Shown one piece after another: positions 1-64,000 of a DNA stretch of 64,000 nt. A model generated the notes under the pieces. It saw only the letters and a program-made list of their open reading frames with translations. It did not search any database and had not been told where the DNA came from. Location of the stretch: assembly GCA_016708315.1 (NCBI GenBank), contig JADJGC010000008.1:31699-95698 (forward strand). The letters are read 5' to 3'. The position numbers and the translations under genes are program-made. Numbering within the stretch: the stretch's first letter is position 1; each line of letters opens with the position of its first letter. The DNA comes from a bacterium. GTDB lineage: Bacteria; Zixibacteria; MSB-5A5; CAIYYT01.

Positions 1-230
1 CTTGGTCTTGAGCTGCGACGCTTTGACAAAAGGATTCACGCCTTTTGTGTTTGGCCGGGTTCGCGCTACGCAATGGTTCGCCCACGGAAATGAAGTTCGA
101 TTATTTCAAGTCAAAACGAGGAAAGTCCTCTTGGCTTAAATCACAGTTCAGCTGATAGAAAGCGACGGCTGCCTCTGTGTTTCAAATGGTGCGAACCATT
201 GGTCGTACTGCTTCAGGAAGGATTGCATGG

Positions 231-1136
231 TCAGATCCATAAGCACCTGCCGGAAGGCTTCCTTGTTGGGACGAGGCTCAGGGATGGTACCCAGGACAAT
301 GTCACCCTGACGACCGGTATCCAGGTCCGTGGCTTGAAGATTGACGTGAGCCTGGCTCCAATCGGCGGCTTTTGCCCCGCGTCCTTTTTGACTTCCAAGT
401 CGAGTGCCGCCAGGGCGTCGAGTTTGTCAGGATTCGTCAGTCCTTCGCGAAGCTTCTCGTAATACTGCCCCAACGTCACCGGCCCGATGCCGCCGATTGG
501 CTTGATCCCATCGGAATCATCGCCCGTGCAGGCGAGGAAGACCGCCATGTCCGGGCCCGTCAATCTTGCATTTGTTGGAAGGAATCCCTGTTTCAGATGT
601 GCATCAATATTCGCGGCGGTTACCAGCTGCCTCTTTTGCGGGTTGTAATGACTGACGTTAGTCTTCACGAGTTGGAGCAGGTCTTTGTCGTAGGAGACAA
701 TTACCGCTGGGTTGCGGCTCGATTGAACTGCTTTGGCAATGAGGTCTTCCGCCTCCATGCCGGGGAATTCGTCGCGAGCGCCGATCACGGCAATTCCGAG
801 GTGCGGCAGGCATTGCGCCAGCCGATGAAACTGTTGGCGCAGATAAGGTGACCCAGTCTTCCGCTTGTAGGTGGGCAGGAGTTCGGCGCGAAATCCATCC
901 CGTGACGAATCCGCGAAGGCGATGACGCGGGCGGGCCGCTGCTTTGCCAGCGTGCTCAGTTGGTTGAACGTCCCCACGAGACCCCATGTGGGTTCTCCCG
1001 TTACTCTGGAAGTAACCTGGCGTGGATCCAGACCGCGAGGGCCCGGCATGTATGCCAGCCGGTGAAGGAAACCGGTCAGGTCAATATAACAAGTGCTGCC
1101 GGGCGGCAGCAGCGGAAGCCCATGCGCAATCTTCAT
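231..1136 (-). CDS. 5'-3' exonuclease / flap endonuclease (PIN + H3TH), stand-alone (phage/Pol I N-domain-like)
   Basis: Motifs IDLTGFLHRLAY, AFADSSRDGFRAELLPTYKRKTG, YDKDLLQLV, GIKPIGGIGPVTLG match the Pol I 5'-3' exo / FEN family; ends TGA at 231-233. Confidence 0.8.
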   Translation of the reverse strand: MKIAHGLPLLPPGSTCYIDLTGFLHRLAYMPGPRGLDPRQVTSRVTGEPTWGLVGTFNQLSTLAKQRPARVIAFADSSRDGFRAELLPTYKRKTGSPYLRQQFHRLAQCLPHLGIAVIGARDEFPGMEAEDLIAKAVQSSRNPAVIVSYDKDLLQLVKTNVSHYNPQKRQLVTAANIDAHLKQGFLPTNARLTGPDMAVFLACTGDDSDGIKPIGGIGPVTLGQYYEKLREGLTNPDKLDALAALDLEVKKDAGQKPPIGARLTSIFKPRTWIPVVRVTLSWVPSLSLVPTRKPSGRCLWI

Positions 1137-1386
1137 CTCCCCATTCTAAGATCGCCGGGCCACGGTCGCTGGGTTGGCGCGCCCTGTCGGTGGATGTTAC
1201 GTCTGTGTCGCTTTCCTTCGTTTGCCAATGAAGAGCCTTTGTAGGAATTATGGGAAGCAATCGCGCCGGTGCGCGGGCAGGATCGCGCCGCAGAATGTTC
1301 CCGCCAAGAATGAAGTTGAATGCGTGCTTTCGCCTTCTTGCGCGGCTCACTTTGGTCACTTGCCGGCGTGATGATGCGGGCGTGAC

Positions 1387-2046
1387 TCAGGGCTCTTCCT
1401 CTTCCATTTCCGGCACATCGCCCTGCGCAAGGTTGCTCTCCACGACGTTGGCCGGAACGCCGGATGCTTTGGCTTGGGCGACGAGTTGCTCCAGCTTCGC
1501 CTTGCCCTCCACGCACGCCTTTTCCGGGTCACCGATTCCGAAGACTTGCTGCGATAGCAAAAGCTTCTGAACCTGACGATCCCAACCTGCCGTCGGGTCG
1601 GGTTGGATGTGCCGGAGAGCTTCGGCCGTCACTTGGATGTCTCGCAAAACCTGCCGCTGTTCGGCTGTGGGCGCAAAGATACCCGGGTTGTTGGACGCCG
1701 GTGTCACGCCGCCGGGATCTTGAGCCAAACATGCGCTCTGAGTGTTGTTCACGGTCGGGTTCTTTATGTCCTTGTCCGCCGGATTGAGTTCCTGAAGATA
1801 CCACGCTCCTTCGGCGAGAAAGAAATTCTGGATGTGGTCGCCGACATCCGCGCTGATGCCCGTGATTTGGTCATCCTGATAGGTGAACGCGTTGGCCAGA
1901 TGCTCCCGTCCCTGGTCATACAGGGCCACCACGTCTTCCCTGGTGTAAACTTCGACCAGCACGAACGGCTCTGTGATTTCCGCGAGTGGCTGGCCGGATT
2001 GGTTGTAGCGGAACGTCCCGCCGTGGGTGACGATTTTCAGTTGCAT
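1387..2046 (-). CDS. hypothetical protein (acidic C-terminus)
   Basis: 219-aa ORF, codon usage consistent with neighbours; no recognisable motif. Confidence 0.45.
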   Translation of the reverse strand: MQLKIVTHGGTFRYNQSGQPLAEITEPFVLVEVYTREDVVALYDQGREHLANAFTYQDDQITGISADVGDHIQNFFLAEGAWYLQELNPADKDIKNPTVNNTQSACLAQDPGGVTPASNNPGIFAPTAEQRQVLRDIQVTAEALRHIQPDPTAGWDRQVQKLLLSQQVFGIGDPEKACVEGKAKLEQLVAQAKASGVPANVVESNLAQGDVPEMEEEEP

Positions 2047-2083
2047 AAATTTCTCTCCATTCTAGGGCTCTTGAGTTGTCCTG

Positions 2084-4527: not shown

Positions 4528-7500
4528 TCACCGTTGGCTCGAGGCCGCACGCAAGCCGATGTAGAATTCGTGAACTGGGCCGGGACAGCCGCGCGCGGCG
4601 AACTCGGCCTGGTAATCGACGTTGTTAGCCTCAGCGGGCCGCGCCTCGGCCAGCAGCGTCTGCATCAATTCCAGTTCGCGCATCTTCTGGGTTTCAGCCA
4701 GTTCCACCAATTCTTCGTTCGTGCGCTGGGTGACGTTGCCGCTGACCAGCTCCACGTTGGCGTTGTTGCGGCGCAGAGCCATTTGGAGCATGGCTTCGTC
4801 GATGCTGGCGCGGCTTGGGTGTTGCGTGACCATATAGGTCACATCCACCGTTGCGGCTCTCTGCTTGGGCCGGGCAATGCGCCCTTCCAGTTGTTGCAGC
4901 GGATAGAAGACGTACTCGGCCTCGACCACGATGAGGGCGGACGCTTTGACCAGATTGTTCAAGCTCTCGTTGATGAGCGGCGTCCGGGTTAGAAAGATGG
5001 GCTTGCGTGAGCGCACATAATGCTGGTCGATCCACTCGCGGCGTTTGTGCGGCTGGGCGGGACGCTTCTCATCCAGCTTGACGAAATCGAAATCCGCCGC
5101 GGTGAACATCTGCACCAGGAGCTCGTAAGTCTTCTGTTGTTTGCAGGCCACGATGACGTTGCGTCCGGTGACCACCATTTCCTGCAACAAAGTGATGAGT
5201 TGTTTAACCTTGGCCTTGAGCGCGACGGCCTGAAGCTCGGCCATCTGGGTGAACCAATCGCGACGTTGAGTGAGACTGAACACCGGTTTGTCGGCGACAA
5301 AGGTCTGCTTCATCGCACTCAGGACATCCTCGTACTCGTCGAGAATGTCGCCCTCCAAAGGGATCGCCAGGAAATGCCGGCGCACATCCGGAATCTTCAA
5401 CCCCATGCTCCGGCTGGTGGCGTGGAGTTGGGCTTGATGGAGATACTTCCACAGCTTCGGCGCGTTGGCGGGTTCAGGCATTTCCTGCTTGTTGCGGCGC
5501 GTGGCGATTCTGTTGCCCTTCGGGTCGTGGATGGCATCGCGCGTCACGCGGAAAGTGACGTGCTGTTCGATGAACTCGTTCTGCTGGTCGTAGGCGTAGG
5601 GGAATTCGGGTGAGTTATAGCCCCACGACAGCGTGAAGATCTGCCACATCTCCGCCGGGGTTCGGCGCAGCAGCGTGCCTGACAAGAGAAAAGTCCTCCG
5701 CGTGTGGATGGATCTGACGGCCTCATAAACCTTGGACTCGCCAGTCAATGAGTGGGCTTCGTCGCAAATTTTCGTGTCGAACAGATTCTTGATGAGCCGA
5801 TACGCCGGGAACTGCAACGCGCTGCGGAATCCCTGGTCGCCTCGGCGCGGCTTCTCCTCGTCGCCCAGTGCCGCCAGCAGGTCGGCCACCTCTGGTGCGA
5901 CTTCTCCGGGCGATTCGTCCTCGACCCGCCGGTAACTTCTGGCCAGGTAACCACACACGCGACAATGACCGTGCCGGGAGAACGTGCCGAATTCGCGCAG
6001 ACCGACGGCGGCCTTGCCGCGTTTGACGTACTCGACGACCTGTTCGCGAATGGCTTTGCGGGTCGCACAGCTCAATTGAATCCATTTCCGCGTCTTGCTG
6101 ACGTTGAAGAATTTTTGAGCGGCCAGTTCCAGGCAGCGCGGGCACTCCTGCACGTGCTGGTGGAAATGGAAGGGAACTCGTTTGACCTCGCCCGTGATGA
6201 CGTTCTGTTCTCTCAGTTTGAGGATCTGCTCCTTGACTTGCCGCTCGGCGTTTTCGCGCGTGCAAATCAGGGTGTGAACGCGTTCGTTGGCGTTGTCCTG
6301 CTCTTTAACGTCCACGGGATACGGATCGAAGGTCTGATTGGCCAGCCCGCCGATGGTGAGGAATTCCTGGGAGAGTACATAGAACCTGGTTCGTTCCGGC
6401 TCCACGCCACGGTTGACCTCCGCCTGCAGTTTACGAATGCAGGCAGCGCTGTGGATGTGCGTGACGTCCAGGCCGAGTTCATCGCGCAGTTCCTTGATGA
6501 TCTCGCCCAGAATCTTGCTCTTGGCGATGAAGGCCACGCGCCGCGCCCCGGCGGCGATGGCGGCGTAAGCGGCGAGACGGGTTTTGCCTGAACCCACGTG
6601 GTGAGTCAGCACCACGCCGCGTTTCAAAGACGCCAGGCCAGCGTGCAACATCTGGACGTCGGTGAGTTGAGCCTTGAGTTGGCTCAAGCACTGAATGCGC
6701 GCCTTCAACTGCTCCGGGTAGGCTTCCGAGAGAGTCTTGATTTCTGGAGGCGGAAACACGCGCAACACCTGGGCGAGGTTCGGGTCTTTGCTCGTGATGT
6801 GGATGCGGCGTCCGTACAGTGCCTTCAACCGTTGTTTGAGCTCGTCCACTTTGCCCGGATTGCCCATCGCGGCGGCCTGCTGGATTTGGCGGGTCAGATC
6901 ATATTCATCGGCCGTGATGACCTTGTAAGTGTTGCCGGTCTGCTGACTGTAAGCATGGATATCCGCCGGCTTAAGCTCGCTCGTCATCGCCAGCGCGGTG
7001 TAGGTGCAGTGCAGGCTCATGTTCCGGCGGGTAAGCCTGGCTTGGTCTTCCTGTCCCTCCTCGGCTTCCAGGAGTTGCGCCTCCGGCAACTCGATCACCT
7101 CGCTATGCTGGATCGGATACACGTAGTATTTTTTGCCCCGGATGAAAGCCCGGACCTTTTTGTTTCGGATGGTGAAGAACACATCCTCTTGGGCGCAGTA
7201 GTAACCGGGCTTGTAATAGGCCAGCAACTGGTCGCCCGTCGGCTTGATCATCGGCACAGTCTGCTGCCGGTAGAAGTCGGCCTGCTTTTCCATCCGACGC
7301 CGGCTCTCGTCACTGTCGGGAAATTCCAATCCAAGCAAACGATGCAGCGCGACGGTTTCTTCGTAGCCGATGGCAGAGGCGAGCAGCGGGTTGCGGACGG
7401 CGGTGTAAAGAGATGTCTCCCGCATTTCCACCGGGTTGTAAACCATCAGCTCCGGCATGAGCTTCAGAAAGAAACCGGCCATCTCACTGATCTGCGGAAC

Positions 7501-7914: not shown

Positions 7915-8270
7915 CAGACAGTTTTCGAGGAGTTCCCGGTAACTGGCGCAGTTGTCGCCGACCGCCTGAATATTCGAGATCCAGTAACGGCTGTGCGTAT
8001 CGGCAGCGACAGCCTGCTCTCGGCTCAGGTAAAGGGGATTGAGGTGACAGCGCCGGTGTAAGCCTTGTGCAGCGTATCAACGTTGGTGTACTTCCCGAGG
8101 CAGATCGCCAGCGAGAGGTTGGGACGGATTTTGCGGTAAAGCCGGACGATGAGCGAAACCCATTCCTGATCGGAGACGATGGTCCGCTTCTCCGGTTTCC
8201 TGGTTTTGTCCGGCTGGCAAGCGGGTGTGAGAGCGGGCAGAAGCGGCGGCTCAAGTAACTCTTCCATGCG

Positions 8271-8783: not shown

Positions 8784-8786
8784 GGA

Positions 8787-49997: not shown

Positions 49998-50033
49998 AGT
50001 GCCCGTTTTGATGCCCGTTTCAGTGCCCGTTTT
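49998..50033. repeat. 3 x 12-bp tandem repeat (agtgcccgtttt / gatgcccgtttc / agtgcccgtttt)
   Basis: Read directly in the roughly 540-bp non-coding tract between the repeat copy and the island. Confidence 0.6.
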
Positions 50034-50154
50034 CGGTTCGGCAATCTGGTCTGCCGGCTGCCCGGACAGGACGAAAATCCGAAGGGGAGAATTTTCGGGT
50101 GGAGCGGCCTGGTCCGGGTCCTGTGATAATCTGGCGGCGCGGTGGATCGAAACC

Positions 50155-52281: not shown

Positions 52282-54646
52282 TCAAGCGTTTGATTTCCCG
52301 TTCCAGCAACTCGTAACATTTTACCGGTTGGTTAGGCTTATCAAAATTATCCCATTCCTGGATCAAATGGGTTTGGAACTCTTCGAGTTGTTTCGCCCCG
52401 AGATCAAACCTGCCGCGCAGCTTGCGAAGCAATTTGGTCGCAAGGATATGATCTGTGGCTTCACCCAGAGTGCCGCCGGCTTCAATAATAACCGGCACAA
52501 ACCGATTCATCTGGCTTTCGAGCCGATTGCCCCAGCCTAAACCCAGTTTGGCGAGCTGATGAGTGAGTGACTTATCCAAAAAGTTCTTGGCTCGGATAGC
52601 GGCATCCTTATGTGTGTTTACCGCCCGATTAAAGGCTCCATCGATTGCGTCCTGTGTGATCGGGACCGGCGAGTTAAGCGGTCTGGGCACGAAGGCCTCG
52701 GGGTGTCTCGGAAACTCCATCACATGGGAGCGGTCATAGGTTTTGTCGGCGAAATCCTTGGTGGTTTCGTCATGATTGGCCGTGCCGATGAACCAGACGT
52801 TGCGCGGAATGCGCAACCAGCGGGCTTCCTCGAGCAGCTGCGGAGCACCATCAATCCTGGACGTCAGCAGACTGACACGCTGCTTCTCCGGGATTTGTTC
52901 GAGTGCCGACAGGAAATCCGCAAAGTAGTGCTCCGGATGCGATAGATTCATTTCGTCCAAGACAATGAAAAACGGAACGTTCCGGTAGTGAGGCTGTTGG
53001 GCACGATACAGAGCCTGGAGAAACTCCGACTCATAATAACGTTTCTCGAATGCGTTGTAATAGCCCAACAAGTCGTTCCGGTCGCGCCAGCCAGATTGGA
53101 CTTCGACGATAGCCGAGGTGGCGCCGATGGCCCGGGCAAATTCGCGGGGGAGGCTAGTTTTACCAGTGCCGCTGATGCCTTGGAGCAAATGAAGCCGACT
53201 GGTGGCCAGACCGGCAAGAAATGCGCGCACGTCCTTGTCCCGGTAATAAAGTTTTTTCTCGCCTATCCGATTCCGAATCTCGTCCACCAAGTCTTTGAGC
53301 GGCGGCAGTTTCTCGAGCACCCTTGCCGGGGGTGTTTGAAGAGTCGCATCGCCATCCATCTCGATAAGGCTAGGGAAAACGCATTGAGCCTTCGACTTGT
53401 CAACTAGTTCCCCAAGCTCGCGGCGCAAATCCTCGACACAGGAACGTAGGGCGCGTTCGCGGCTATCCCAAGCTGCTTTCTGGTCTCTCAAATTTTGCAT
53501 TTCAGCAACGCCGATGGATAATTTGCTCATCTGGGACTGCAACGATTGGTTATCTTGGAGCAACCGTGCCAAATCCGAATGCAGAGTCTCATTCTCGCTT
53601 TCCAAGCCGATGAGTCGGGCAATCTGATCATCTGCAGGTTTACGGGCCAGTTCCGCCACCAACTTTCCGTGCCGCTCCTGCAACGTGGTCAGTTCAGACA
53701 GCAATTCTTCCCGTGTTTTTCCGGCGGCAACGCGTTCGGTTTCCTCGTAGCGGCTAATCTGCTCGGCAAGCTGTTTGCACCGGGCCAAAGCACTCTGCAA
53801 ACGGCTTTCCCGATCGGTAACCGCTTCCCGGACTTTTTCCTCAATTCTTGAGACCCAGTTGGTCTTAAGTTCTTCCGCCTCCTGCTTGGCCCACTCGGCT
53901 TCACGCTTGGATCGAGCCACTGCCTGTTTTTCCAACTGAAGTTGCTGTCTGCCTTCCTCCACGCCGACCAACTCGCGTTCCCGAATCTGGCGAAGCTCAG
54001 TTTCATATTTCTTTATGCCATCGAGATAACTCTGATGATGCTCGGCAATCTGCTTTGCCAAGGCCTTGGCTTCTTCATCAAGTTTTGCGAGTGCCTGACG
54101 ACGTTGTTGCAAAAATCCAGACTCGGCGTCGATCTCTCGTTCCTTTAGTTTTTCCTCTGACTGGATGATGTCTCTTTCCCGACGGTCCAACCCCGATTTG
54201 CGGTCATCCAATTCGCGCTGGGTCTTGCGCTGTTCATCCTTTTGCTGGCGTAGTTCCTCCTCACGCTTCTGAACCTGTGCGTTATGTTCATGGGCTTCGG
54301 CTTCCCGATTTTTGGCTTGTGCCTCTGCGGCCTCCATGCGGCTTTGGGAACGCTCAAATAGTTGCCGAGCTTCGTGAGCCACTTTCCATAGATTTAGCGG
54401 ATCAATTTCCGACGCGACGGGGGCCAGTGGCGGCATGGGCGGATTGTTGAGATCCTCCTCGGTCAGAAGGTTGGTCGCCTGATTCGAAATTACAGTGATC
54501 TGCGCCACAACTTCCGCAGGAGTGGATGGGCCAGCGGGATTGACAGGTGATGCCGAGGTTCCGGCATTCGCCACCGCCGGCTGCATATTTTGCCGTCTGT
54601 TATTGCGATCTTTTTTGCTCATAGTTTTGAGGCTTTGTCGTTGCAA
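52265..54646 (-). CDS. McrB-like AAA+ GTPase (AAA_5) with about 450-aa N-terminal coiled-coil domain
   Basis: GISGTGKTS Walker A, FFIVLDEMNLSHPE (McrB DEMN Walker B), GTAN...DRS signature; N-terminal half is E/R/K/Q-rich heptad sequence. Confidence 0.8.
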   Translation of the reverse strand: MQRQSLKTMSKKDRNNRRQNMQPAVANAGTSASPVNPAGPSTPAEVVAQITVISNQATNLLTEEDLNNPPMPPLAPVASEIDPLNLWKVAHEARQLFERSQSRMEAAEAQAKNREAEAHEHNAQVQKREEELRQQKDEQRKTQRELDDRKSGLDRRERDIIQSEEKLKEREIDAESGFLQQRRQALAKLDEEAKALAKQIAEHHQSYLDGIKKYETELRQIRERELVGVEEGRQQLQLEKQAVARSKREAEWAKQEAEELKTNWVSRIEEKVREAVTDRESRLQSALARCKQLAEQISRYEETERVAAGKTREELLSELTTLQERHGKLVAELARKPADDQIARLIGLESENETLHSDLARLLQDNQSLQSQMSKLSIGVAEMQNLRDQKAAWDSRERALRSCVEDLRRELGELVDKSKAQCVFPSLIEMDGDATLQTPPARVLEKLPPLKDLVDEIRNRIGEKKLYYRDKDVRAFLAGLATSRLHLLQGISGTGKTSLPREFARAIGATSAIVEVQSGWRDRNDLLGYYNAFEKRYYESEFLQALYRAQQPHYRNVPFFIVLDEMNLSHPEHYFADFLSALEQIPEKQRVSLLTSRIDGAPQLLEEARWLRIPRNVWFIGTANHDETTKDFADKTYDRSHVMEFPRHPEAFVPRPLNSPVPITQDAIDGAFNRAVNTHKDAAIRAKNFLDKSLTHQLAKLGLGWGNRLESQMNRFVPVIIEAGGTLGEATDHILATKLLRKLRGRFDLGAKQLEEFQTHLIQEWDNFDKPNQPVKCYELLEREIKRLNGGAT

Positions 54647-56243
54647 GATTCAGTAGACACCCAGTTGCGTGAATAATCAGCTCCCACATCTCTTCTGCTT
54701 CCGAAATTGAAAAGCGTTTAGGCGAAGGGTTGTGCGAGTCATCATGAGATCCCGCGTTGCCTAGGTCGATTATGCGGGCAAGCTTGCGCAAGAACTCTAC
54801 ATCTTTGGACGCTGCTTTTCTGAGGGGATGGACCGGGTGCAATGATGACGCCAACAAAGTTGCAACCACTGCACTTGGCAATTTGTAAACGTTACCCACA
54901 TCCCGGCATATTCCAATTATGAGGCCTTTGTTTGGCTTTCCGCCCGACTTATCAATCTGAAAAACTCCGGGCAATGGCAGGCGTAATCCAATTGATTGAG
55001 CTATGTGGTCAACGGTTGCCCGGTCAATCGCAACGTCGCCGTTAAGAAGTGCCGGCGCATTACTCAACGATGAAACTCGAGCGATTGACTTCAGCAACGC
55101 TTCAAGCGTCCTTCGACATGATTGCATGACCGAGCCGAGGTCACTCTGAGATTCTCCTTCGGTGGCTCTCGCCAGGGATAAACTTTTGGCCGCTGCCACC
55201 AGGTGCTCAAAAACGGCGGAGGTTGCCTTAATATCGAGGGACAGTCGCGCCACGACCTCGGATTCGGCAATTTTTTGTTGCTGCTCCAACAACTCCTCCA
55301 AGGCCGGAGCATCCTTAATCTGCGCGAATCGCAAAAAATCCCGCTGGGCACCAGCCGCGCCCTCATCGTCTCTAGCTATTCGTTGCAGTTGACGCCACAT
55401 TTTCTCGTCGCACCCAAATCCGAACGGATCACAAATCTGAGGTAGAAATGCGCTCCCTTTGGGCAAGTATCCAAACGTAACCAGCCCGGCTGGCTCGGGC
55501 TGGTCGCTAATCGAAGCGATACGCGCGAGCAATTCAGGTGAATCATCGCCGGCGATTCCCATTATCTCCGATGCATCCAAGCGCATTGATTTTTTCTGTT
55601 CTTCACGACGGCGACACTGCTTTACCGCCCGCAAAATCATGGCGCTGGATGGTTGCACCGGGCTCGCCGGGGCATCGAAGGTCCAAGCAGGAACCTTGCG
55701 TAGCCCCCTTTTTGAATCCAGTGCCAAGTTCAAACGTCCCAGTCCATAGCCTATGGTGGTTTCTTGAAGCTGAAGCTGTTGGCTGAAGTGCGGCCAGAGT
55801 TCGCCGCTCCAGGGGTCTTGGAATACCCAACCGGTGATCAATGTATCTATGATCAATTCTTCTTTTTCAAGGACGTCAAGCCCCTTGGGTGTCGGGCGGA
55901 ATGATTTCTGGTCCACCCAGCCAGAACGGACCAACTCCATGCCGATATTTTCAACCAGGTGAGGATGGAGGTGAAGTTTGGTGGCGATCTCCGCGACCGA
56001 ATATGAATTGCTGCACCACAAACCGAGCACTGCTTTCTGGAGAAGGTTGATGCGTTGGTCTGATGGTGCTGGTGCCACCACCCGCCATGCGGCGCATGGC
56101 CAAACAAGATAGACACGCCCCGTGCGATCATAATCGTGGTGGGCGGCTCGGGGACCGTAATTTAAGACAAGATCCATGGTGTCAGAAAATTGCCCCATGG
56201 CTGCCCCGGCAAAGTTTTTGGAATGCATGGAGGCCGGGGACAT
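54600..56243 (-). CDS. hypothetical island protein (possible wHTH near N-terminus)
   Basis: 547-aa ORF between helicase and McrB-like genes, overlapping both. Confidence 0.5.
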   Translation of the reverse strand: MSPASMHSKNFAGAAMGQFSDTMDLVLNYGPRAAHHDYDRTGRVYLVWPCAAWRVVAPAPSDQRINLLQKAVLGLWCSNSYSVAEIATKLHLHPHLVENIGMELVRSGWVDQKSFRPTPKGLDVLEKEELIIDTLITGWVFQDPWSGELWPHFSQQLQLQETTIGYGLGRLNLALDSKRGLRKVPAWTFDAPASPVQPSSAMILRAVKQCRRREEQKKSMRLDASEIMGIAGDDSPELLARIASISDQPEPAGLVTFGYLPKGSAFLPQICDPFGFGCDEKMWRQLQRIARDDEGAAGAQRDFLRFAQIKDAPALEELLEQQQKIAESEVVARLSLDIKATSAVFEHLVAAAKSLSLARATEGESQSDLGSVMQSCRRTLEALLKSIARVSSLSNAPALLNGDVAIDRATVDHIAQSIGLRLPLPGVFQIDKSGGKPNKGLIIGICRDVGNVYKLPSAVVATLLASSLHPVHPLRKAASKDVEFLRKLARIIDLGNAGSHDDSHNPSPKRFSISEAEEMWELIIHATGCLLNLATTKPQNYEQKRSQ

Positions 56244-57336
56244 ATTGGGAAAATTCGGACGAGGCCATGGCTGAATCTCCGACCGTAATCAATAATCGCT
56301 TTTGGCGACTCATCGCGACACACAGGCGGTTTTCAAGCAATAGATGGCCGAATTTGCGGCGAACACTTTTATCATCGGCGGGTTGAATTCGGTTTGAACG
56401 AGTCAGCGAGAGGATGACAACATCGAATTCCTTGCCTTGAAAGGCATCCACGGTCCCGACGCGAAGACGTTCGCACACTTCGCGTTGAGCGTTGACTGTG
56501 CTGCGCCAGGCATCCGCAATGACCAAATCGTTATCATCCGACAGGGTTGTCAGGTCCACCCGTTGCATTGCGGTCATGATGGCCTTGACCTGCGCGGCAT
56601 AAAAAGAAATGATCCCCACGCTCAACCCGGGAGATTCTTGCAAGATGCGGCGTGTTTCGGCGGCAATCCAATCCGCCTCACAATGCCGAACCCAGCTGTG
56701 GTCGGCGTGTTCCTCTGCACCGTTGTAGATGGGCAGATTCTTCCAAACCGCAAGTTTTCCCTCGTAGCTTCCGCCCAAGCCGTGGGCAAATTGCGGGTTC
56801 AATTCGGCACCATCGGGCGATAGAAACGCCTCACCGTGGTCCTTGTAAAAGGCGTCACTTACAAAAGTGCCCAGCACCGGATGCATCCGGTATTGGGTGT
56901 CCAGCGTGACCCAGCGTTTTATACCGTCTAATTTCTCCAAATCCTTGACGTGGATGAACAGCCGTTCAAACAGGCTCTTACGGATCTGGTCGCGGGTCTC
57001 ATCACGAACAGATTGCTCAAGTTCGCGCTCCACTTCTGGCTCCAAAAGATGGGGCAGTTGCCGGTGATCACCCACCAAAATGATTCGCCGGGCGGCTCGG
57101 CTCAGGGGAATGAGCAAATCAAGGGGATTGGCCCGGGCCGCCTCATCGACAATGACATTCTCAAACTCAAGATCGTCCGAGAGCATTTCCATCATCCGGT
57201 CACTGACCGCCTGCTGACAAGTTGCCGCAAGGACCACCGTGTAATTCTCGACGGTTTTCCGCAACCCGACCGGGTCATTTCGCAGGTCCTGAATCAGTTG
57301 TTCGAGCACCATATCCGGCCCCCTCAGCCGACGCAT
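56182..57336 (-). CDS. Upf1-like SF1 helicase, C-terminal part (motifs II-VI); split from N-terminal part by frameshift
   Basis: IVDEAARANP (motif II), ILVGDHRQLP (III), VDAFQGKEFDVVILSLTRSN (V), CVAMSRQKRLLITVGD (VI). Confidence 0.75.
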   Translation of the reverse strand: MRRLRGPDMVLEQLIQDLRNDPVGLRKTVENYTVVLAATCQQAVSDRMMEMLSDDLEFENVIVDEAARANPLDLLIPLSRAARRIILVGDHRQLPHLLEPEVERELEQSVRDETRDQIRKSLFERLFIHVKDLEKLDGIKRWVTLDTQYRMHPVLGTFVSDAFYKDHGEAFLSPDGAELNPQFAHGLGGSYEGKLAVWKNLPIYNGAEEHADHSWVRHCEADWIAAETRRILQESPGLSVGIISFYAAQVKAIMTAMQRVDLTTLSDDNDLVIADAWRSTVNAQREVCERLRVGTVDAFQGKEFDVVILSLTRSNRIQPADDKSVRRKFGHLLLENRLCVAMSRQKRLLITVGDSAMASSEFSQYVPGLHAFQKLCRGSHGAIF

Positions 57337-59515
57337 TGCGAACGCACTTGTCCAAGGTGGAAATCATCTCATCAAGAACGTTGATGACTTCCGAATTGAC
57401 CAATGGGGTTCGGGAAGGCGGGGTAGATAATTGCAGGGCATCCAACAGCCGATTTTTGACCAATTCCATTGCCGGCAAGAAGTCGGGCGCAGACTCACTA
57501 TCCCAGTCTCTGGCCTTTTCCAAAAGGGCGCGGTCTTCGGCAGTGAGCCAAGAGCCTGATGATAATTGATTGAGAACCCGCCATGCCATCTTCGGCCCGT
57601 CATCGGCGAACGCCTCTTTCTGAATGCGCAGACCACGGACCACCTGGATGGCTGCCTGACACTCGTCGTCCTGACCGGCCACTCCCAGTTTGAGGCGGTC
57701 AGCCACACTGACAATCCGGTCAGACAAATCCGCTGGCAAATGCTCGCCTGCCAACGAACGTAAATCCAACAGCATGCGAGCGGCTTCGGTTTCAGTTCCA
57801 GGAGATTTGACATAGGAGGCATGTCTGATCCGAATTGTTTCCAGCAACTTTCTCAACGGCTTTTTTGGGCTGGCTGCCAAGTCCGCCTCCAAGGCTTCCG
57901 CGATCCGGTTGGTCCAAGCTATCAAGGGCAGACTTTCGGAGTTGTCTCCTCGTCGCCGGCCCACCTTCATCGCCGGAAGGCCGAAAATCTCGGTCATGGC
58001 CGCCGCATTCTCGACCGCATCATGTTGGAAGCTTGTGAGCAACACCTTTTCGAAGTCAGCGTTTTGATCTTTGGCAATTTCAGTAAGGCGCTCGATGATG
58101 GCTGATATGGTGCGGGTCTTGCCGGTGCCGGGTGGCCCTTGAATAACGGCTATATCGGGGGTGTTCAATGCAACCCTGATGGCTTCCACCTGCCGTGGGG
58201 TCGGCGCACCGGAATGAAACCGGGCTTTCGCCGCGCCGGACAACGGTTCGTGCGTCTGCACGCGGCGAACCGGCACTGGCCGGTTTTCAAGCAACAAAGC
58301 CAGTTGTGGAATTGAAGTCTTCCCGCTGGCAATGCGTGAATGCGCCTCGTTTCGGCGTGCCATTCTTTTCAAATCGCCGCGCAAGCTGACATGAATATAA
58401 CCCCGATCTGGTGGCACAACCCCATCTTGGGTATCGGGGCGCAGTCGAATGCTTTGGGTGTCGTTACCAGCCAAAGCGCCACGAAACGCCGGCCGTGATT
58501 CGCGAACCGCTATTTGAAAACTGGGCGTCTCTTCGTCGCCGGCTGGCGTGCTGGTGAGCATATCCGGGACTTCCGCTGATGCCTCCAAATCCTTGTCGGC
58601 GGTGATGCCCTGCCATAGTTGGGAGGGGGTCCATTGGCTATCGGCGGTCAACTGAAAAGACCAGCATCCATCCGGCATTCGATGACAACCATCGTAGCTC
58701 AACCAGCCAAAGCGTTTGGCCTCTTCAACGACACGCCGATGTTCCATCGCCTGGTATTCCAGCCAGACTCCCAAATAACTGCCGGCGGTGCGGACAATCT
58801 GATCGAGTTCCGTTGCCATCCCCTGCCGCATCTTGCCGGCTATGGTCTGATCAACAAATTCAAAGGCCCCTTCGGCAAGAATAACGGGGCGATATTCTTC
58901 CGGTTTGATGGCGGTCTTGGGGCGGGTTAGACGAAATGCCAACCAGCCACCTTCTTTATGCCGTTCGACATCCAGCGCGAATCGGTCACCGAGGATTCGG
59001 AAGGCTTGTTTTTGGCTATGTTGCGAGTCTGGCCGACCAATGATGATTACCCTGGCCAGTCCAGCTGGCGAATTGGGCTGGATGATTAATTTATCGGCGA
59101 GCCAAGCACAGGCGGTTTCGGTTGAGAAACGGCGTGCCTGTTGTCGTCCCATATCGGCCACCAGCTTTTCGTCCACGCCGATTTTTAGCTCAGGAATAGA
59201 AAAGCGTTCCGAGAATTCGTGAATCTGGATGGTCAAAGCGACCAACTGATTGCGGTCAGAGCGCAAACCAACCAACCAACACAACCGGGGAGCATCCTGT
59301 TCAATTGAGCGTTGCAGTTCCCTCCGACTTTTGTGGTCCCTTGCATCAACAACCAATGGTTCGGCTTGGCCCGGAAGAATAAGCGCACACAGGTCGCCAA
59401 CGCGCGTCAGCATCAACTCCCGCCCGTTGGGCGGAATCCGCTCAATTCCGACATCCACCAAGGGGACAACATCAAGCGTCAGAATCTTACCGTGTTGGAG
59501 GTTGGCGATTTCCAT
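57275..59515 (-). CDS. Upf1-like SF1 helicase, N-terminal part (large N-terminal region + Walker A)
   Basis: VIQGPPGTGKTRTISAIIERL; overlaps the C-terminal part by 62 nt in another frame at a C5 run (57319-57323). Confidence 0.75.
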   Translation of the reverse strand: MEIANLQHGKILTLDVVPLVDVGIERIPPNGRELMLTRVGDLCALILPGQAEPLVVDARDHKSRRELQRSIEQDAPRLCWLVGLRSDRNQLVALTIQIHEFSERFSIPELKIGVDEKLVADMGRQQARRFSTETACAWLADKLIIQPNSPAGLARVIIIGRPDSQHSQKQAFRILGDRFALDVERHKEGGWLAFRLTRPKTAIKPEEYRPVILAEGAFEFVDQTIAGKMRQGMATELDQIVRTAGSYLGVWLEYQAMEHRRVVEEAKRFGWLSYDGCHRMPDGCWSFQLTADSQWTPSQLWQGITADKDLEASAEVPDMLTSTPAGDEETPSFQIAVRESRPAFRGALAGNDTQSIRLRPDTQDGVVPPDRGYIHVSLRGDLKRMARRNEAHSRIASGKTSIPQLALLLENRPVPVRRVQTHEPLSGAAKARFHSGAPTPRQVEAIRVALNTPDIAVIQGPPGTGKTRTISAIIERLTEIAKDQNADFEKVLLTSFQHDAVENAAAMTEIFGLPAMKVGRRRGDNSESLPLIAWTNRIAEALEADLAASPKKPLRKLLETIRIRHASYVKSPGTETEAARMLLDLRSLAGEHLPADLSDRIVSVADRLKLGVAGQDDECQAAIQVVRGLRIQKEAFADDGPKMAWRVLNQLSSGSWLTAEDRALLEKARDWDSESAPDFLPAMELVKNRLLDALQLSTPPSRTPLVNSEVINVLDEMISTLDKCVRNASAEGAGYGARTTDSGPAK

Positions 59516-59518
59516 GTG

Positions 59519-60961
59519 TTATGGCATCGGTTTGAAAACGACCGCTCGATGGAGCCTGTCCAGTGGACCAAAGTGCAAATGCCAATGCGGGCTTTGGGAC
59601 GCTATCGGGATTGGTTTTTCGGCGGCGACACCCAGGCTATCAATCGTTTTGTCCTGACCGGTGTGCTTCACCAACAGGAACGATTCCTGAGACAGGTTGC
59701 GCACCCGAATCGAATCAGCCCGGGTGCGAGTGATTTCGACGAGCGGTTGCTCGGTCTGGTCTGATGCATCATCACTGTGAACGTGTCGGCGCAAGATTTG
59801 AACTGATTCTTTAGGTGCCAAAACGATCGTGGCCAAGGAACGACTCTGACTGGTCGAGGTTTTAACGAAGCCGCCTGGTGAAGCTCCGGTGGCAAAAGTA
59901 ATTTCAGGATCCCAAAGATAAACAACCGCCAAGCTTAACTGCGGGCGAGGCTGTCCGCACCACGGGCACTCACGCCTTTGGGGGGCGTAAAATGAAGCCT
60001 GGCAATGCGGACAAGTGATCGTCACGTCGGCCGCCTGACTGAGAGCACTGACCCATTCCCCCAAGCCGGGGCGGGCAAGGCGGTCTTTAAGCCCGTCCTC
60101 GAACATGCGCTTGAAAAGTTTTTTTACCTCCGGGGAAATTACGATGTCTCGGTCAATGCCCCGGGAGGAACGATTTTTCAAATCGGTGGTGTGTTCGATC
60201 CAAGGCATATCACCGCGAAACGCCGCCTCTTCAAGTTCCGGTTCGCCATCGTGGACCAGATTGCCCACGAACGGGTGGACGAGGGTCAGCAATTCAAAGG
60301 CAATCACAGCCAAGGCGAAAGCATCGGTCAAAGTATCCGGCCCCATGTCGCCACGAATCAATTCGGGTGCTCCATATCCAGGGGTAAAAACCCCGGAGGC
60401 GGTAGCATCGCGCTGAACATGTAAATTATCGGCATCAATCAAAAAAGCCCAGGAGTGATTTCCATCGGAGCCAAACAGAATATTCTGCGGTGAGGGATCG
60501 CCGTAAACCAAACCGCGTCCATGCAAGCGGCTGAAGACATCAAAAATGGCCACCAACTTTTGCAACCTTGCCCGCAGTCCCCCAGTGGCCACATACCACG
60601 CGGTCACACTACGACCATCTGCAGGTGGAACCATCATGGCTCGAAGTGATGACATGCCGGCGGCCAATTGCATCAGATAGCCCACATGTGGAGGTCCTAA
60701 TACAGCAATTGGTGAAGCGATGGGCAGTCCAGCCAAGTCCAACCGCTTCACCGCCTGAATGCAACGACGCAGACGCTGCCGCTCACTTTCGCTGACGGAT
60801 CGCAGGAGTTTCACGGCGAGACGGCCTTCCTTGACCTCGAAAACATCCCCTTGACCACCCTGGCCAATCAACTTTGCCAAAGTATAGCGACGGCCTTCGA
60901 GGTCCGTGACCACTTGACCACAGACGGTTGATTGGATGCGGGGTGATGGCATGGCAATCAA
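59519..60961 (-). CDS. Ser/Thr protein kinase with C-terminal zinc ribbon
   Basis: IGQGGQGDVF Gly loop, AVK lysine, LVYGDPSPQNILF catalytic loop, TPGYGAPE; CPHC...CPWC. Confidence 0.8.
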   Translation of the reverse strand: MIAMPSPRIQSTVCGQVVTDLEGRRYTLAKLIGQGGQGDVFEVKEGRLAVKLLRSVSESERQRLRRCIQAVKRLDLAGLPIASPIAVLGPPHVGYLMQLAAGMSSLRAMMVPPADGRSVTAWYVATGGLRARLQKLVAIFDVFSRLHGRGLVYGDPSPQNILFGSDGNHSWAFLIDADNLHVQRDATASGVFTPGYGAPELIRGDMGPDTLTDAFALAVIAFELLTLVHPFVGNLVHDGEPELEEAAFRGDMPWIEHTTDLKNRSSRGIDRDIVISPEVKKLFKRMFEDGLKDRLARPGLGEWVSALSQAADVTITCPHCQASFYAPQRRECPWCGQPRPQLSLAVVYLWDPEITFATGASPGGFVKTSTSQSRSLATIVLAPKESVQILRRHVHSDDASDQTEQPLVEITRTRADSIRVRNLSQESFLLVKHTGQDKTIDSLGVAAEKPIPIASQSPHWHLHFGPLDRLHRAVVFKPMP

Positions 60962-61707
60962 TGACTCAAGATGACGGCAACCGTTTTATCATCGAGATGA
61001 CCTGGCGTTGGCCATTCTCGCAAAGCCCGGCGGAGCGTCGGACCCCTTTCGATACTTGGCTTGCCAGCAATTTCGTTTCGCAACCATTTTATGAACACGT
61101 CCAATTTGTCCGGGCGCAGATCGTCAGCAATTCCGTCGGTCACGAGGACGGCGATCCATGGTTCTTTGGAAAGCGGCAGGCTAACGTGATTCCAGTCGGT
61201 CATCCGGTGGTTCACACCCAGTCCGAGGGTTTCGTTGACAAAATCCCCGGCGGGCCGAGTAGAAAGGCATTGGACCGGTTGTTTTCCCCGTTGGAAAAAG
61301 GCCATGCCGTCGCCCAGCCCCGCATATATTAATCCCGCTTTCGGATGGGCGGCAATTAGATGACAGGTGGTGGCACATTGCTGCGGCGGATGTGGCGCAA
61401 CCGAGAAACGCCATTGCGCTTCAAGCCAGCGACAAACCCATTCCGAGCCGACGTCAGTTGCCTTGGCCCACAACCGAGTGGCTCGAATGGCCGAGGCGCA
61501 TGCGGAGCGCGCTCCGAGTGCGGCAAATGGTTTTGATCCCATGCCGTCCCCGATAGAAATTGCCGCCGCTGGCCCAAACGACCGTCCCCGCCAAACATCC
61601 TCGCAGGGTTTTCCGTTCTTTTTGTGCATAGGGCCACGCACTGATGCCCCAAAAATAATTGGCGCAACAGCGAGCGTAGCACGACCATGCTTAGTAACGG
61701 ATTTCAT
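60958..61707 (-). CDS. PP2C-family Ser/Thr phosphatase
   Basis: CEDVW...SIGDGMG, AGLGDG, VLVTDGIADDL; 4-nt overlap with kinase gene. Confidence 0.8.
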   Translation of the reverse strand: MKSVTKHGRATLAVAPIIFGASVRGPMHKKNGKPCEDVWRGRSFGPAAAISIGDGMGSKPFAALGARSACASAIRATRLWAKATDVGSEWVCRWLEAQWRFSVAPHPPQQCATTCHLIAAHPKAGLIYAGLGDGMAFFQRGKQPVQCLSTRPAGDFVNETLGLGVNHRMTDWNHVSLPLSKEPWIAVLVTDGIADDLRPDKLDVFIKWLRNEIAGKPSIERGPTLRRALREWPTPGHLDDKTVAVILSH

Positions 61708-62365
61708 CTATTTCCAAGGGATCAACCGGGGCAATTTTATCAGGTGTGGCACTCCGACTGCGCACGGTAACGCTCATGGTCACCCACTTGAAAAATTTGT
61801 GAATATCGCGGGCCTGGTGGGCCTGAAACACTTTTGACTCAGGCGCATTGAGGAAACTCTGAAGCATTTGGCCATCGGCGTCCGCACCGATCGCCATGGC
61901 CATACGAGCCGCCTTGGAAGCCCGCGCTGATTCGAGCAACTGTTTCAGGGGCAACTGCCATTCGTCACTCGGCTGCCCGTCTGAAACCAGCACGAGCGTG
62001 GGACGATAAGACCGGGAAGGAACGAGTTTCTTGCCCTCCAACATGACGTGCAGTTGGGTCAGGGTTTGCCCCAACGGGGTGTTGCCCTGAGCAACCAACG
62101 GCTGCCATTTCTTTTTTGCCTCCGCCGCATTCAACAAAGGCAAATGAGCGCGGACATCGCCCCCAAAGGCAATGGCCCCGATTTGGATCATGGCGCGAAC
62201 ATCCGGCTCGGCGGCAAAGGTCGCGAGCATTTCCTCAACGGCCCGATTCAGCGCTTCAATCTTGCCGTTTTCCGCCATGCTCCCGCTGGCGTCGAGGAGA
62301 AGAAAAACAGGGAGAGGGCGGGCTTGATCGACCGTGAACTCCTTGAGTGTGATTTCGTTCTTCAT
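61691..62365 (-). CDS. vWA domain protein (TerY-like)
   Basis: MIDAS LLLDASGSM, LVLVSDGQPSD; start at MKNEITL (ATG 62365). Confidence 0.75.
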   Translation of the reverse strand: MKNEITLKEFTVDQARPLPVFLLLDASGSMAENGKIEALNRAVEEMLATFAAEPDVRAMIQIGAIAFGGDVRAHLPLLNAAEAKKKWQPLVAQGNTPLGQTLTQLHVMLEGKKLVPSRSYRPTLVLVSDGQPSDEWQLPLKQLLESARASKAARMAMAIGADADGQMLQSFLNAPESKVFQAHQARDIHKFFKWVTMSVTVRSRSATPDKIAPVDPLEIDEIRY

Positions 62366-62648
62366 GAACACATGGTAACCAAAACTGTGAGTCAGCCGCA
62401 ACGAGCGAGTCAGCTTGGAAGCGACAGCGGATGTGAAACGCTGTGGAAGTGGGTTCACGGGCTGCGACCGATAGAAAGAGTGTTCCGGCCGCCACGAGCG
62501 GAGCGGGCAGAAAGTGATGAACTACGGGCAAAGCTCGAAGCGTTACCGTCGGCTGACAAAGCGGACGGGGTACCATTCAGCCGACGCATTTATCTCCGCC
62601 GCAGCGGATATTGCGAAGCTTTGTGCCGTGCATCCGTCGCTTCCGGCG

Positions 62649-62787
62649 TTACTGCGCTGCCCAAGCCATGATAACCTCCACGATTTTCGGTACGAGGAAC
62701 AAACAGACAGCGCCGCCGAGGTTCTTGCCCATCGCTTCCATGTCTCCGTTCTTGAATTTGATCGAAGCAATACCCATAAAAATCACT
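62649..62787 (-). repeat. direct repeat copy 2 (intact 3' end of trbC)
   Basis: Aligned by eye to 49480..49615, core about 60 nt about 95% identical. Confidence 0.7.
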
Positions 62788-63029
62788 CCAAGGAGATAGA
62801 AGACGTACAGAGCGTACTTCGCCACGGAACGGAGCGTGGCCGTGAGTCCCGTGCTTTCATTGGCGGCGTCCTGGAAGTCTCCCGTGCCGAGTCCTCCGCC
62901 AATATCCGAAGAGTCGCCCGCCCCGGTGCTCTGGGCCAGGACCAGGCGCGGGCTGCCCAGCAGCGTGAGAACGAACAGGCCCACCATGAGTTTTGCGATC
63001 AGATGTTTCATAACGGTAATCGTTGTCAT
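62649..63029 (-). CDS. TrbC/VirB2-family T4SS pilin
   Basis: Signal peptide + two hydrophobic segments, 126 aa; its 3' end is direct repeat copy 2. Confidence 0.6.
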   Translation of the reverse strand: MTTITVMKHLIAKLMVGLFVLTLLGSPRLVLAQSTGAGDSSDIGGGLGTGDFQDAANESTGLTATLRSVAKYALYVFYLLGVIFMGIASIKFKNGDMEAMGKNLGGAVCLFLVPKIVEVIMAWAAQ

Positions 63030-63120
63030 TTTGTCTCCGGCCCTGTTTGGCTTCGCCGCCAGGCCCGTTTCTCCATTCTAGGTTTCGCCCAGTGGGTCCT
63101 CTACCTGTCGCTCGCTTTTT

Positions 63121-63423
63121 CTATATGTGCCCCTGATCCTGGCCAAAGCGTTCGGGGAAGAATTGGATCAAGATTCGGCACAAGCATCCGAGCGTGCAGT
63201 AACAGGAAAACACGATGAACGCCAGGATGCGGACGGCGGCGCGCAGCTTCGGCGCCTGGGCGATGTCGATGAACTCGGTGATGTAAGGATGCCAGGCGAT
63301 GGCCACGCCGGCCAGAAAGAGCAGGCTTGCGAAAACGCTCAACACGATCGCGTTGATGGATGGAAACGGTCGGGCGAGCCAGTTCATGACGGCAACAAGA
63401 ACGTCTCTCATAGCCTCATCCAC
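63121..63423 (-). CDS. small membrane protein
   Basis: Two or three hydrophobic helices. Confidence 0.4.
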   Translation of the reverse strand: MDEAMRDVLVAVMNWLARPFPSINAIVLSVFASLLFLAGVAIAWHPYITEFIDIAQAPKLRAAVRILAFIVFSCYCTLGCLCRILIQFFPERFGQDQGHI

Positions 63424-63737
63424 TGTTGGGTGGTTGGGTCGTATGCGACCTGGGCGGCAAGATTCGTTGGGTTGATCTGGTAATAATAGTGCCCCTTGGA
63501 CGCGAGTCTGACTTGCAGCTCCAGGACCCGTCCCAACGTGTCGTTCGCCGTCACTGGGAGACCCTCCATATCAGCCAGCGCTTGCATCCGCTGCACGGTT
63601 GCCAATGCGTCGCTCTGGGCAACTGTGCGGGCTTCCTCTCGCATTCCGGAGATTCGCCATGCGCCAACGGCCGCAAGGATGAACACCACGGTCAACACCA
63701 TCACCAATTCGATCAAAGTGAAACCGTCACGTTTCAT
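63408..63737 (-). CDS. prepilin-type pseudopilin
   Basis: MKRDGFTLIELVMVLTVVFILAAV. Confidence 0.7.
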   Translation of the reverse strand: MKRDGFTLIELVMVLTVVFILAAVGAWRISGMREEARTVAQSDALATVQRMQALADMEGLPVTANDTLGRVLELQVRLASKGHYYYQINPTNLAAQVAYDPTTQQWMRL

Positions 63738-64000
63738 TCTGCCTCCTGCGATTGCTGCGCACCGCATGCCACGCCAGACCCGGAGCTCCTGCGATTGCCG
63801 AGGACAATGTCGCTTTCACTGCTGATTTTCCGTCGGTGATGCCCAGCGCCTTGCCAACGGATTTGATCCCGCCCGCCAAAGCGCGTCCAATTGGCGCCGA
63901 CGGAGCATCGACTCCGCCTGATGCGCCGACGGGTGGCGCACCCGCAGCGGCTCCAACTTTACTTGCGCCTCCGGCTGCGCTTCCTGCCGCTCCAGCCCCT

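Follow-up and report, generated by a model that had tools for sequence, protein, structure and literature searches.

Accumulation of pseudogenes is exemplified by Mycobacterium leprae, by recent host-restricted symbionts and by cryptic prophages. Frameshift errors are documented in metagenome-assembled genomes (MAGs) obtained with Nanopore R9.4.1 (Sereika et al. 2022, PMC9262707), and the MAGs of Singleton et al. 2021 are R9.4.1 assemblies made with CANU that received one Illumina Racon polish (PMC8012365).

In this study, a 64-kb stretch of DNA (the window) was aligned to 57 related metagenomic loci and to full-length homologues. The alignments showed that 13 genes carry 15 lesions which break the reading frame or introduce a stop codon; one further change is an in-frame deletion of 3 nt (Table 1). 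The 15 lesions include 3 nonsense substitutions, two multi-nucleotide garbled patches, one 137-nt deletion and approximately 10 single-base indels, and none of them is common to any of the 57 related loci. Broken genes amount to 13 of the 52 in the window and to one among the relatives' 492 gene copies (149,631 aa), a contrast that bears out the statement of an earlier note that the density of disruptions is far above normal. The figure of 13 combines 11 true disruptions from an ORF-integrity comparison, which flagged 12 genes with one of them merely stopping one codon early, and 2 disruptions found by alignment; called gene starts served as the reference in this comparison, stop-to-stop reference ORFs yielding false stops. 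An automated scan found 10 window-unique indel clusters, all 10 in coding sequence (approximately 90% of the window is coding), and 9 of them break the reading frame.

The earlier note had counted seven disruptions. Six of these were recovered (secretin, SbcC, the small secreted protein, VirB4, the island helicase and the TAG in PilT); the count itself was about half of the true number and one gene had been mis-parsed. The supposed gene at 32.3-33.6 kb with two shifts is instead a 107-aa gene with a single -1 shift, lying beside a separate, intact 334-aa gene (32594-33598). Lesions missing from the earlier list were those in the exonuclease, the SNF2-like gene (two), and the pilin-like, 78-aa and 174-aa genes, together with the TAG codons in the PilB-like gene and SbcC. 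Frameshifts were also suspected at the overlapping ORF trios of 33.6-36.2 kb, in the MshEN/T2SSE pair near 29.6 kb, and at 27.6-29.7, 38.0-39.4 and 63.1-63.8 kb; these were rejected, the relatives having separate adjacent genes at these places.

Table 1. Lesions and accessory island in the 64-kb window
Feature	Gene	Position	Strand	Remarks
5'-3' exonuclease, +2 frameshift	~148-1136	369..378	-	Two adjacent runs each one base over (G3>G4, A3>A4)
SNF2-like gene, junction of 137-nt deletion, frame shifted	~4389-8270	4590..4600	-	In C-terminal linker; 1338 aa in relatives
SNF2-like gene, -1 frameshift near N-terminus	~4389-8270	8044..8045	-	C3>C2 on sense strand; extra base in 8/8 relatives spanning the site
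Secretin, -1 frameshift	13683-15919	14962..14970	-	G2>G1, adjoining 3-nt indel; single ORF of 734-755 aa in relatives
PilB-like T2SSE ATPase, in-frame TAG at codon 69	15964-18183	17977..17979	-	GAG in relatives (739 aa)
SbcC, CAG>TAG (22320-22322) and -1 frameshift (22295-22297)	21622-24386	22295..22322	-	-1 is A4>A3
PilT (384 aa), in-frame TAG	30908-32062	31706..31708	-	GAG in 17/17 relatives, including 99.82%-identical L033
107-aa gene, -1 frameshift	32291-32613	32474..32477	-	C5>C4 on + strand; extra base in 15/15 relatives
Pilin-like gene (131/137 aa), garbled patch, net -11 nt, frameshift	36901-37303	37137..37165	+	Same difference from the window in 14/14 relatives
78-aa gene, -1 at penultimate codon	37355-37591	37583..37588	+	Stop lost; ORF continues to 37858
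116-aa secreted protein, net +13 (8 + 5 nt)	~37665-38016	37736..37754	+	Directly past signal peptide; extra bases absent in 4/4 relatives
173/174-aa gene, +1 frameshift	41464-41989	41700..41703	-	Extra base splits a run of four; absent in 13/13 relatives
VirB4, in-frame 3-nt deletion	46506-49047	46734..46736	-	Window only; absent in 13/13 relatives, including 99.79%-identical L056
VirB4, +1 frameshift	46506-49047	47757..47758	-	G>GG on sense strand; 847 aa in relatives; extra base absent from 13 aligned loci
Island MkoA-like SF1 helicase, +1 frameshift	56182-59515	57319..57323	-	C4>C5 run; closest homologue 1110 aa
Accessory island, 13.2 kb		49482..62780	-	Flanked by 130-nt direct repeats; absent from relatives

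At several of these genes the original product can still be traced. The exonuclease has 328 aa in loci L038 and L039; its ORF in the window ends at 231, with the original C-terminus legible in another frame. The same two loci contain the extra 137 nt of the SNF2-like gene, the last 67 aa of which are conserved in another frame of the window, and a short microhomology is present at the deletion junction. Both SbcC lesions and four other substitutions fall inside approximately 45 nt, the TAG belonging to a cluster of 5 substitutions; in relatives nothing interrupts the reading frame, which was called at 921 aa in L007 and spans 936-974 codons from stop to stop in L001-L004. Database matches to VirB4 included 22 full-length homologues of 847-850 aa and three further, shorter fragments, and full-length homologues of the island helicase measure about 1100-1130 aa.

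Two short-read contigs nearly identical to the window cover some of the affected sites. L033 (Logan SRR11674054), 99.82% identical over 6.7 kb, reads GAG at 31708 and has the C5 run at 32474, and L056, 99.79% identical over 3.8 kb, encodes an intact 847-aa VirB4 and lacks the 3-nt deletion. Comparison at approximately 99.8% identity covered 4 of the 16 changes; the others were compared with relatives at 94-98.6% identity, except that for the island helicase the closest relative reaches only about 85% DNA identity. L033 differs from the window at a few further sites, so that its origin from the same population is not provable. The near-identical Logan contigs are inferred to derive from Illumina runs of the presumed source project. 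In this way, public short-read contigs can partly replace read mapping when suspected long-read errors are to be checked.

As to that project, the window proteins were deposited at NCBI as MAG proteins, among them MBK7091821.1 and MBK7091795.1; their locus tag is IPH59_, and their contig, 116,811 bp long, belongs to a 'MAG: bacterium'. The IPH59_ series very probably belongs to a Nanopore R9.4.1 activated-sludge MAG project, an attribution based on accession proximity and the locus-tag series rather than on the record itself. Judging from the accession and locus-tag series, the window record is very probably an R9.4.1 assembly made with CANU, Racon and medaka. The accessions that were traced are neighbours in the MBK7 and MBK8 series; one of them, MBK8002123.1, is from Singleton et al. 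2021, and SRR11674035 is an Illumina run of the same project.

Substitutions were used to date the lesions. Those private to the window were 233 synonymous and 66 nonsynonymous, and relatives gave similar values (L011, 123:28; L001, 102:32). Past the frameshifts, when read in the original frame, private substitutions were also mostly synonymous (16:3 in the C-terminal part of VirB4, 8:2 in that of the secretin and 13:3 in the SNF2-like gene), which rules out long-term decay. The lesions are far younger than the divergence of the strain itself, and selection did not filter them. The youngest substitutions, unique to the window, were 39 nonsynonymous and 25 synonymous, compared with 37% nonsynonymous among the singletons of relatives, a comparison subject to ascertainment and short-timescale effects; about 3 of 65 window-unique coding singletons are nonsense changes, close to the neutral rate. 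The singleton ratio was rejected as a means of telling sequencing error from recent decay, very recent neutral evolution giving the same picture. The ratio of window-unique substitutions to indels, approximately 5:1, would by a rough estimate be within the range expected of real neutral mutation.

Local alignments were read by eye for the sequence context of the lesions. The claim that several indels lie at homopolymers holds in part: 3 of about 10 single-base indels fall in runs of at least 4 bases, which make up approximately 4% of the bases according to run counts in the window, and the remainder lie outside such runs. No shared sequence motif was evident by eye at the indel sites. Among window-unique substitutions, 11 of 74 are located within 1 nt of a CCGG, compared with a background of 5.4% (5.2% in relatives; p = 0.002, a post hoc value that fails correction over all 4-mers), which is suggestive of miscalls at a methylation motif. 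Several lesions look technical, namely the adjacent double homopolymer over-calls, the garbled patches of 30-50 nt with small indels and mismatches, and the odd base inside a run of four.

We consider it likely, with a probability of about 0.72, that all, or at least most, of the lesions are consensus errors left over in a long-read metagenome assembly, rather than true gene decay. Among the observations in its favour, the lesions are private to the record and the genes covered by near-identical short-read contigs are intact there. Short-read polishing would have left part of the long-read consensus errors uncorrected, and the underlying organism or element would most likely possess intact genes for the secretin, PilB, PilT, SbcC, VirB4, the SNF2-like protein, the exonuclease and the helicase. 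The 137-nt deletion is possibly a true structural variant. On the other side stand the three nonsense substitutions and the 137-nt deletion, which are no classic homopolymer errors, and the low share of single-base indels in runs of at least 4 bases (only about 3 of 10). Where the earlier note had set an error-prone assembly against a decaying element, the former is favoured by private lesions that are absent at 99.8% identity and unfiltered, with no older relaxation of selection; the latter is weakened, not refuted. The accompanying warning, that the question be settled before any functional inference, was correct, with the evidence now favouring assembly error.

Alternatively, the lesions could be real, if selection was lost very recently on this copy of the element or on its host lineage; the secretion, conjugation, repair and defence genes would then be young pseudogenes. 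The youngest substitutions, with at most three nonsense changes and a nonsynonymous share near that of unfiltered mutation and above that of the relatives' singletons, would fit such a history, as would the mixture of lesion types (nonsense, +1, -1, a deletion with microhomology, an in-frame -3), the double hits in both SbcC and the SNF2-like gene, and the true disruptions known in relatives. Even so, we regard it as unlikely, though not negligible: no lesion recurs in a relative, contigs at 99.8% identity are free of them, and dN/dS is raised neither along the older stretch of the branch nor past the frameshifts. Independent mutations would, moreover, hardly produce adjacent double homopolymer expansions or garbled patches, the platform behind the record was probably error-prone, and in the window no IS elements were seen in Pfam scans and no large deletions besides that of 137 nt. 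A bolder version, in which the contig captures the very onset of mutational meltdown in one copy of a widespread, large Verrucomicrobiota-associated element, is slightly more doubtful still; if true, secretion, conjugation, repair and defence genes would have received about 15 inactivating hits by the time the copy had diverged by approximately 0.2% from intact relatives.

Two further explanations were weighed against consensus error. The consensus may be a chimera of co-existing strains, the indels then marking places at which divergent haplotypes were merged by polishing; such a chimera would itself be a kind of assembly artefact and no true rival. It draws on clusters of window-unique changes (7794-7801, 18351-18364, 33190-33257, 38120-38122 and 45218-45301) and on the many close strains in public data, but a chimera should bear alleles known elsewhere, and the lesion alleles are found in the window only, mostly within sequence that apart from them is 100% identical to that of the nearest relatives. 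We hold it to be very improbable. Least credible is that the genes function as written, with amber recoding or suppression allowing readthrough of the TAG codons and with programmed frameshifts. All three nonsense codons are indeed TAG (two from GAG, one from CAG), and the change in PolA of L008 is likewise GAG to TAG; however, TAG is the likeliest nonsense codon in a GC3-rich genome in any case, it terminates 4 of the 48 confident window genes, it occurs in frame only three times in 64 kb with GAG at one of these sites in the 99.8%-identical relative, and no tRNA of any kind, suppressors included, is encoded in the window. Programmed frameshift sites would be conserved, and none is kept in any relative, the homologues being single uninterrupted ORFs. 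That the relatives lack the sites effectively refutes this explanation.

The surroundings of the lesions were also examined. Among the genes of the element are those for a PolA, a DnaN and a sigma factor of its own, as well as for VirB4 and a type IV pilus-like apparatus. The accessory island contains, in order, genes for a VWA protein, a PP2C, a Ser/Thr kinase, the MkoA-like helicase, a weakly MkoB-like protein, an AAA_5/PDC-M26A protein and a 700-aa protein. Presence/absence polymorphisms of cassettes were observed at 1276, 37591 and 49611, and these occur among intact relatives too. Genuine breaks do occur in relatives: IS110 has inserted into the DEAD helicase of L055, and PolA of L008 has TAG in place of GAG. 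Megablast of the window against plasmids gave no match, tblastn of PolA against phages gave matches at approximately 25% identity only, and peptide-pattern scans of GTDB representative genomes and IMG/VR with the PilB-like ATPase found no relative.

The result mainly concerns quality control, the lesions being of less biological interest than the conserved backbone of the element. Annotators of the record would wrongly call the secretin, PilB, PilT, VirB4, SbcC and the Mokosh-like helicase pseudogenes, and fragments risk being mistaken for separate proteins; GenBank lists a 746-aa 'AAA family ATPase', which is a helicase fragment, and a 265-aa 'TadA', which is a fragment of PilT. Functional inference is better based on repaired genes, for which the relatives supply gene models.

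Compared with known systems, the window resembles phages that recode amber to Gln in having in-frame TAG within conserved genes. It differs from them in that only three codons are concerned, TAG keeps its role as a terminator, a suppressor tRNA is missing and near-identical relatives have sense codons. With decaying genomes and defunct elements it shares many frameshifts and nonsense changes over unrelated functions, with some genes hit twice; it differs in its unshared lesions, its older substitutions under normal purifying selection, its intact relatives at 99.8% identity and the lack of visible IS insertions or large deletions other than the 137-nt one. From the artefacts of Nanopore R9.4.1 MAGs, with the platform here inferred, it departs in that only about one-third of the single-base indels fall in runs of at least 4 bases and in its three nonsense changes, two garbled patches and 137-nt deletion. 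Like those artefacts, its lesions are mostly single-base indels that split genes whole in relatives, may be enriched at homopolymers, scatter irrespective of gene function at approximately 20 indels per 100 kb, and are absent from near-identical short-read assemblies.

Window genes were checked by pairwise and multiple alignment with 57 related metagenomic loci (L001–L057) and by a tblastn test of gene integrity, for which these relatives supplied the models. Fifteen disrupting lesions were found over 13 genes, every one private to the window (see table). Disruptions are thus present as the earlier note had said, but its count of seven was about half of that obtained here, and its "32.3–33.6 kb gene with two shifts" is the 107-aa gene, which carries a single shift and lies next to a 334-aa gene that is intact. 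Further pairs of overlapping ORFs had been suspected of being frameshifts and were rejected, since all relatives have them as separate genes. Most lesions are probably assembly artefacts in the window consensus (probability approximately 0.7).

Lesions found in window genes, with one non-breaking change (window coordinates)
Gene	Position	Change
5′-3′ exonuclease	369–378	+2: adjacent runs G3>G4 and A3>A4
SNF2-like gene (1338 aa in relatives)	4590–4600 (junction)	137-nt deletion
SNF2-like gene, second lesion	8045	−1
Secretin	14962	−1
PilB-like ATPase (739 aa)	17977–17979	GAG>TAG, codon 69
SbcC, frameshift	22295–22297	−1
SbcC, nonsense	22320–22322	CAG>TAG inside 45-nt cluster
PilT	31706–31708	GAG>TAG
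107-aa gene	32474	−1 (C5>C4)
Pilin-like 131/137-aa gene	37137–37165	patch, net −11
78-aa gene	37588	−1, stop lost
116-aa secreted protein	37736–37750	patch, net +13
174-aa gene	41703	+1
VirB4, non-breaking	46734	in-frame 3-nt deletion
VirB4, frameshift	47757	+1
Island helicase (MkoA-like SF1)	57319	+1 (C4>C5)

The relatives came from a metagenome scan with the PilB-like ATPase (loci at 82–96% protein identity, one on a 411-kb contig), from searches for homologues of PilT, VirB4, and the helicase in repaired form, and from contigs encoding those homologues or small proteins identical to ones in the window. Of the 64 kb, 63.2 kb is covered by at least one of them and 39.2 kb by five or more; several are 97–99.9% identical to the window. 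No near match to the window turned up in plasmid or phage searches, and no relative in pattern scans run on GTDB representatives and on IMG/VR. The backbone genes form a conserved and widespread set, present at 62–99% protein identity on dozens of public contigs, including ones of 341 kb, 385 kb (JACZKP010000076.1, labelled Verrucomicrobia bacterium), and 411 kb. It comprises divergent PolA, DnaN, sigma-70, RNase HII, SbcCD, secretin, PilB/PilT-type ATPases, pilin-like proteins, and VirB4 with TrbI-like neighbours. It may belong to a chromosome or to a giant extrachromosomal element.

The window has a G+C content of 53–60%, and most of its genes lie on the minus strand. Pfam recognised a 5′-3′ exonuclease, DnaN, a sigma-70 factor, and an SNF2-like helicase, together with a secretin, several prepilin-like proteins, an MshEN protein, and three ATPases of the T2SSE family, among them a PilB-like and a PilT-like one. 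SbcC, SbcD, RNase HII, a family A DNA polymerase, a helicase of the DEAD/Helicase_C_2 type, and a VirB4/TraG-type ATPase were also encoded. A block at approximately 50–62 kb, lower in G+C, encodes VWA, PP2C, protein kinase, SF1 helicase, and AAA_5 proteins. A plus-strand ORF at 18450–19739 (429 aa, no Pfam match) is a candidate gene only; compared with L001 it shows several locally compensated frameshifts, such as −1 at 19002 and +1 at 19021. A garbled non-coding patch at 10160–10252, upstream of a 455-aa DUF2201 gene, has three small indels (−1, +2, +1) in about 90 nt, none of them shared by L001, L038, or L039.

The high lesion density pointed out earlier was borne out. With the same reference models, the automatic test found 11 true disruptions among 52 window genes (12 were flagged, one merely having its stop one codon early), and alignment added two more, versus one in 492 gene copies (149,631 aa) of the relatives. 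That copy is the PolA gene of L008 (JGI contig Ga0210602_14085239), with GAG>TAG in frame at 15147–15149 of that contig. The PolA of its sister L009 (99.4% identity) has no TAG, and G<>C transversions are unusually frequent where the pair differ, suggesting errors in the L008 assembly as well. In L055 (JGI P52013CM_1002911, 6672–8761), a DEAD/Helicase_C_2 homologue called at only 243 aa adjoins an IS110-family transposase gene and looks like a genuine IS disruption.

Old decay of the window genes is excluded. Substitutions polarised with outgroups gave 233 synonymous to 66 nonsynonymous changes private to the window, a pattern also seen in L011 (123:28) and L001 (102:32). In the original frame 3′ of the frameshifts, the ratios were 16:3 in the VirB4 C-part, 8:2 in the secretin C-part, and 13:3 in SNF2; purifying selection therefore acted on the broken genes for essentially all of the private divergence (2–3%).

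Genuinely recent inactivation draws support from the 74 window-unique substitutions in well-covered sequence: 39 were nonsynonymous, 25 synonymous, and up to three nonsense (one scored, two in stretches treated as non-coding), more nonsynonymous than the relatives' singletons (approximately 37%, 26–37 kb region). This spectrum is close to unfiltered, as would be expected equally of substitution errors or of very young, unpurged mutations. Neither nonsense substitutions nor the 137-nt deletion, which has short microhomology at its junction, are errors of the classic Nanopore kind, and the deletion is possibly a true variant. Against recent inactivation, lesions are missing wherever near-identical independent sequence exists. 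Three contigs of short-read type are near-identical to the window: L033 (assembled by Logan from SRR11674054; 6,739 bp, 99.82%) has GAG in PilT and C5 at 32474; L056 (3,757 bp, 99.79%) has intact VirB4, with neither the +1 nor the 3-nt deletion; and L042 (1,956 bp, 99.95%) comes from SRR11674054. Several lesion forms are also hard to explain by single mutations, namely two neighbouring homopolymers each one base longer (exonuclease), a foreign base within a run of four (41703), and garbled patches of 30–50 nt in which mismatches accompany four or five small indels, although the flanks are otherwise identical. Recent inactivation is thus considered unlikely.

In genes under selection, the great majority of natural indels have lengths divisible by three. 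All 10 window-unique indel clusters in an automated scan fell in coding sequence and nine broke the frame, so these indels are unfiltered by selection. Window-unique substitutions lay at CCGG ±1 in 11 of 74 cases, about three times the 5.4% background, in a post hoc test that fails correction over all 4-mers; the relatives' singletons were not enriched (5.2%). Such enrichment would be expected of methylation-dependent miscalls. A consensus chimeric between strains, or recoding, is very improbable; recoding and programmed frameshifting are effectively excluded, with TAG ending 4 of 48 genes, no tRNA gene in the window, and the sites conserved in none of the relatives.

The 13.2-kb island at 49482–62780 is not present in L008, L012, L013, L051, and L056. 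It is flanked by 130-nt direct repeats (49482–49611 and 62651–62780, 80% identical), in which the 3′ end of a 120-aa gene is duplicated, and no integrase was found. Its seven genes (VWA, PP2C, Ser/Thr kinase, MkoA-like helicase, weak MkoB-like, AAA_5/PDC-M26A, and a 700-aa protein) share 85% DNA identity with a cassette that adjoins RecC and a PLD-SNF2/MmeI-type island on Verrucomicrobiota MAG contig JBEKOF010000039.1. At this position L010 (1749–9347) encodes PfkB, ORC/CDC6-like, PRTase-CE, Hydrolase_3-like, and HTH proteins, and L048, L050, and L057 have other cargo; the site upstream of VirB4 therefore looks like a variable-island hotspot. Another presence/absence hotspot, 37591–37656, is occupied in many relatives (L007, 2385–4450) by a roughly 2-kb cassette comprising a VanW-domain gene, a SAM methyltransferase, and a 113-aa gene; it is lacking in the window and in L018, L026, and L030, and the window junction contains a C9 run with a G run after it. 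In L038 (17647–19097) and L039 a 360–399 aa gene (about 1.45 kb) separates the exonuclease gene from the 219-aa gene; it is missing from the window at 1275–1280.

GenBank holds the window's protein fragments (MBK7091821.1 and MBK7091795.1 among others, locus tag IPH59_) on a 116,811-bp contig of "MAG: bacterium". MBK8002123.1, an accession close by, is attributed to Singleton et al. 2021 (PMC8012365), whose pipeline used CANU to assemble Nanopore reads, followed by polishing with Racon, two medaka rounds, and a single Illumina Racon round; judging from the accession series, the window record probably comes from this project. SRR11674035 is an Illumina run of the project, and SRR11674054 is therefore very probably another. 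Functional inference on secretion, conjugation, repair, or defence should use repaired models, such as those from L038, L007, L011, and P0146, and the broken window genes should not be treated as pseudogenes. The finding is an ordinary data-quality issue; frameshift errors are well documented in R9.4.1 MAGs, even in those ranked high quality (Sereika et al. 2022, PMC9262707).
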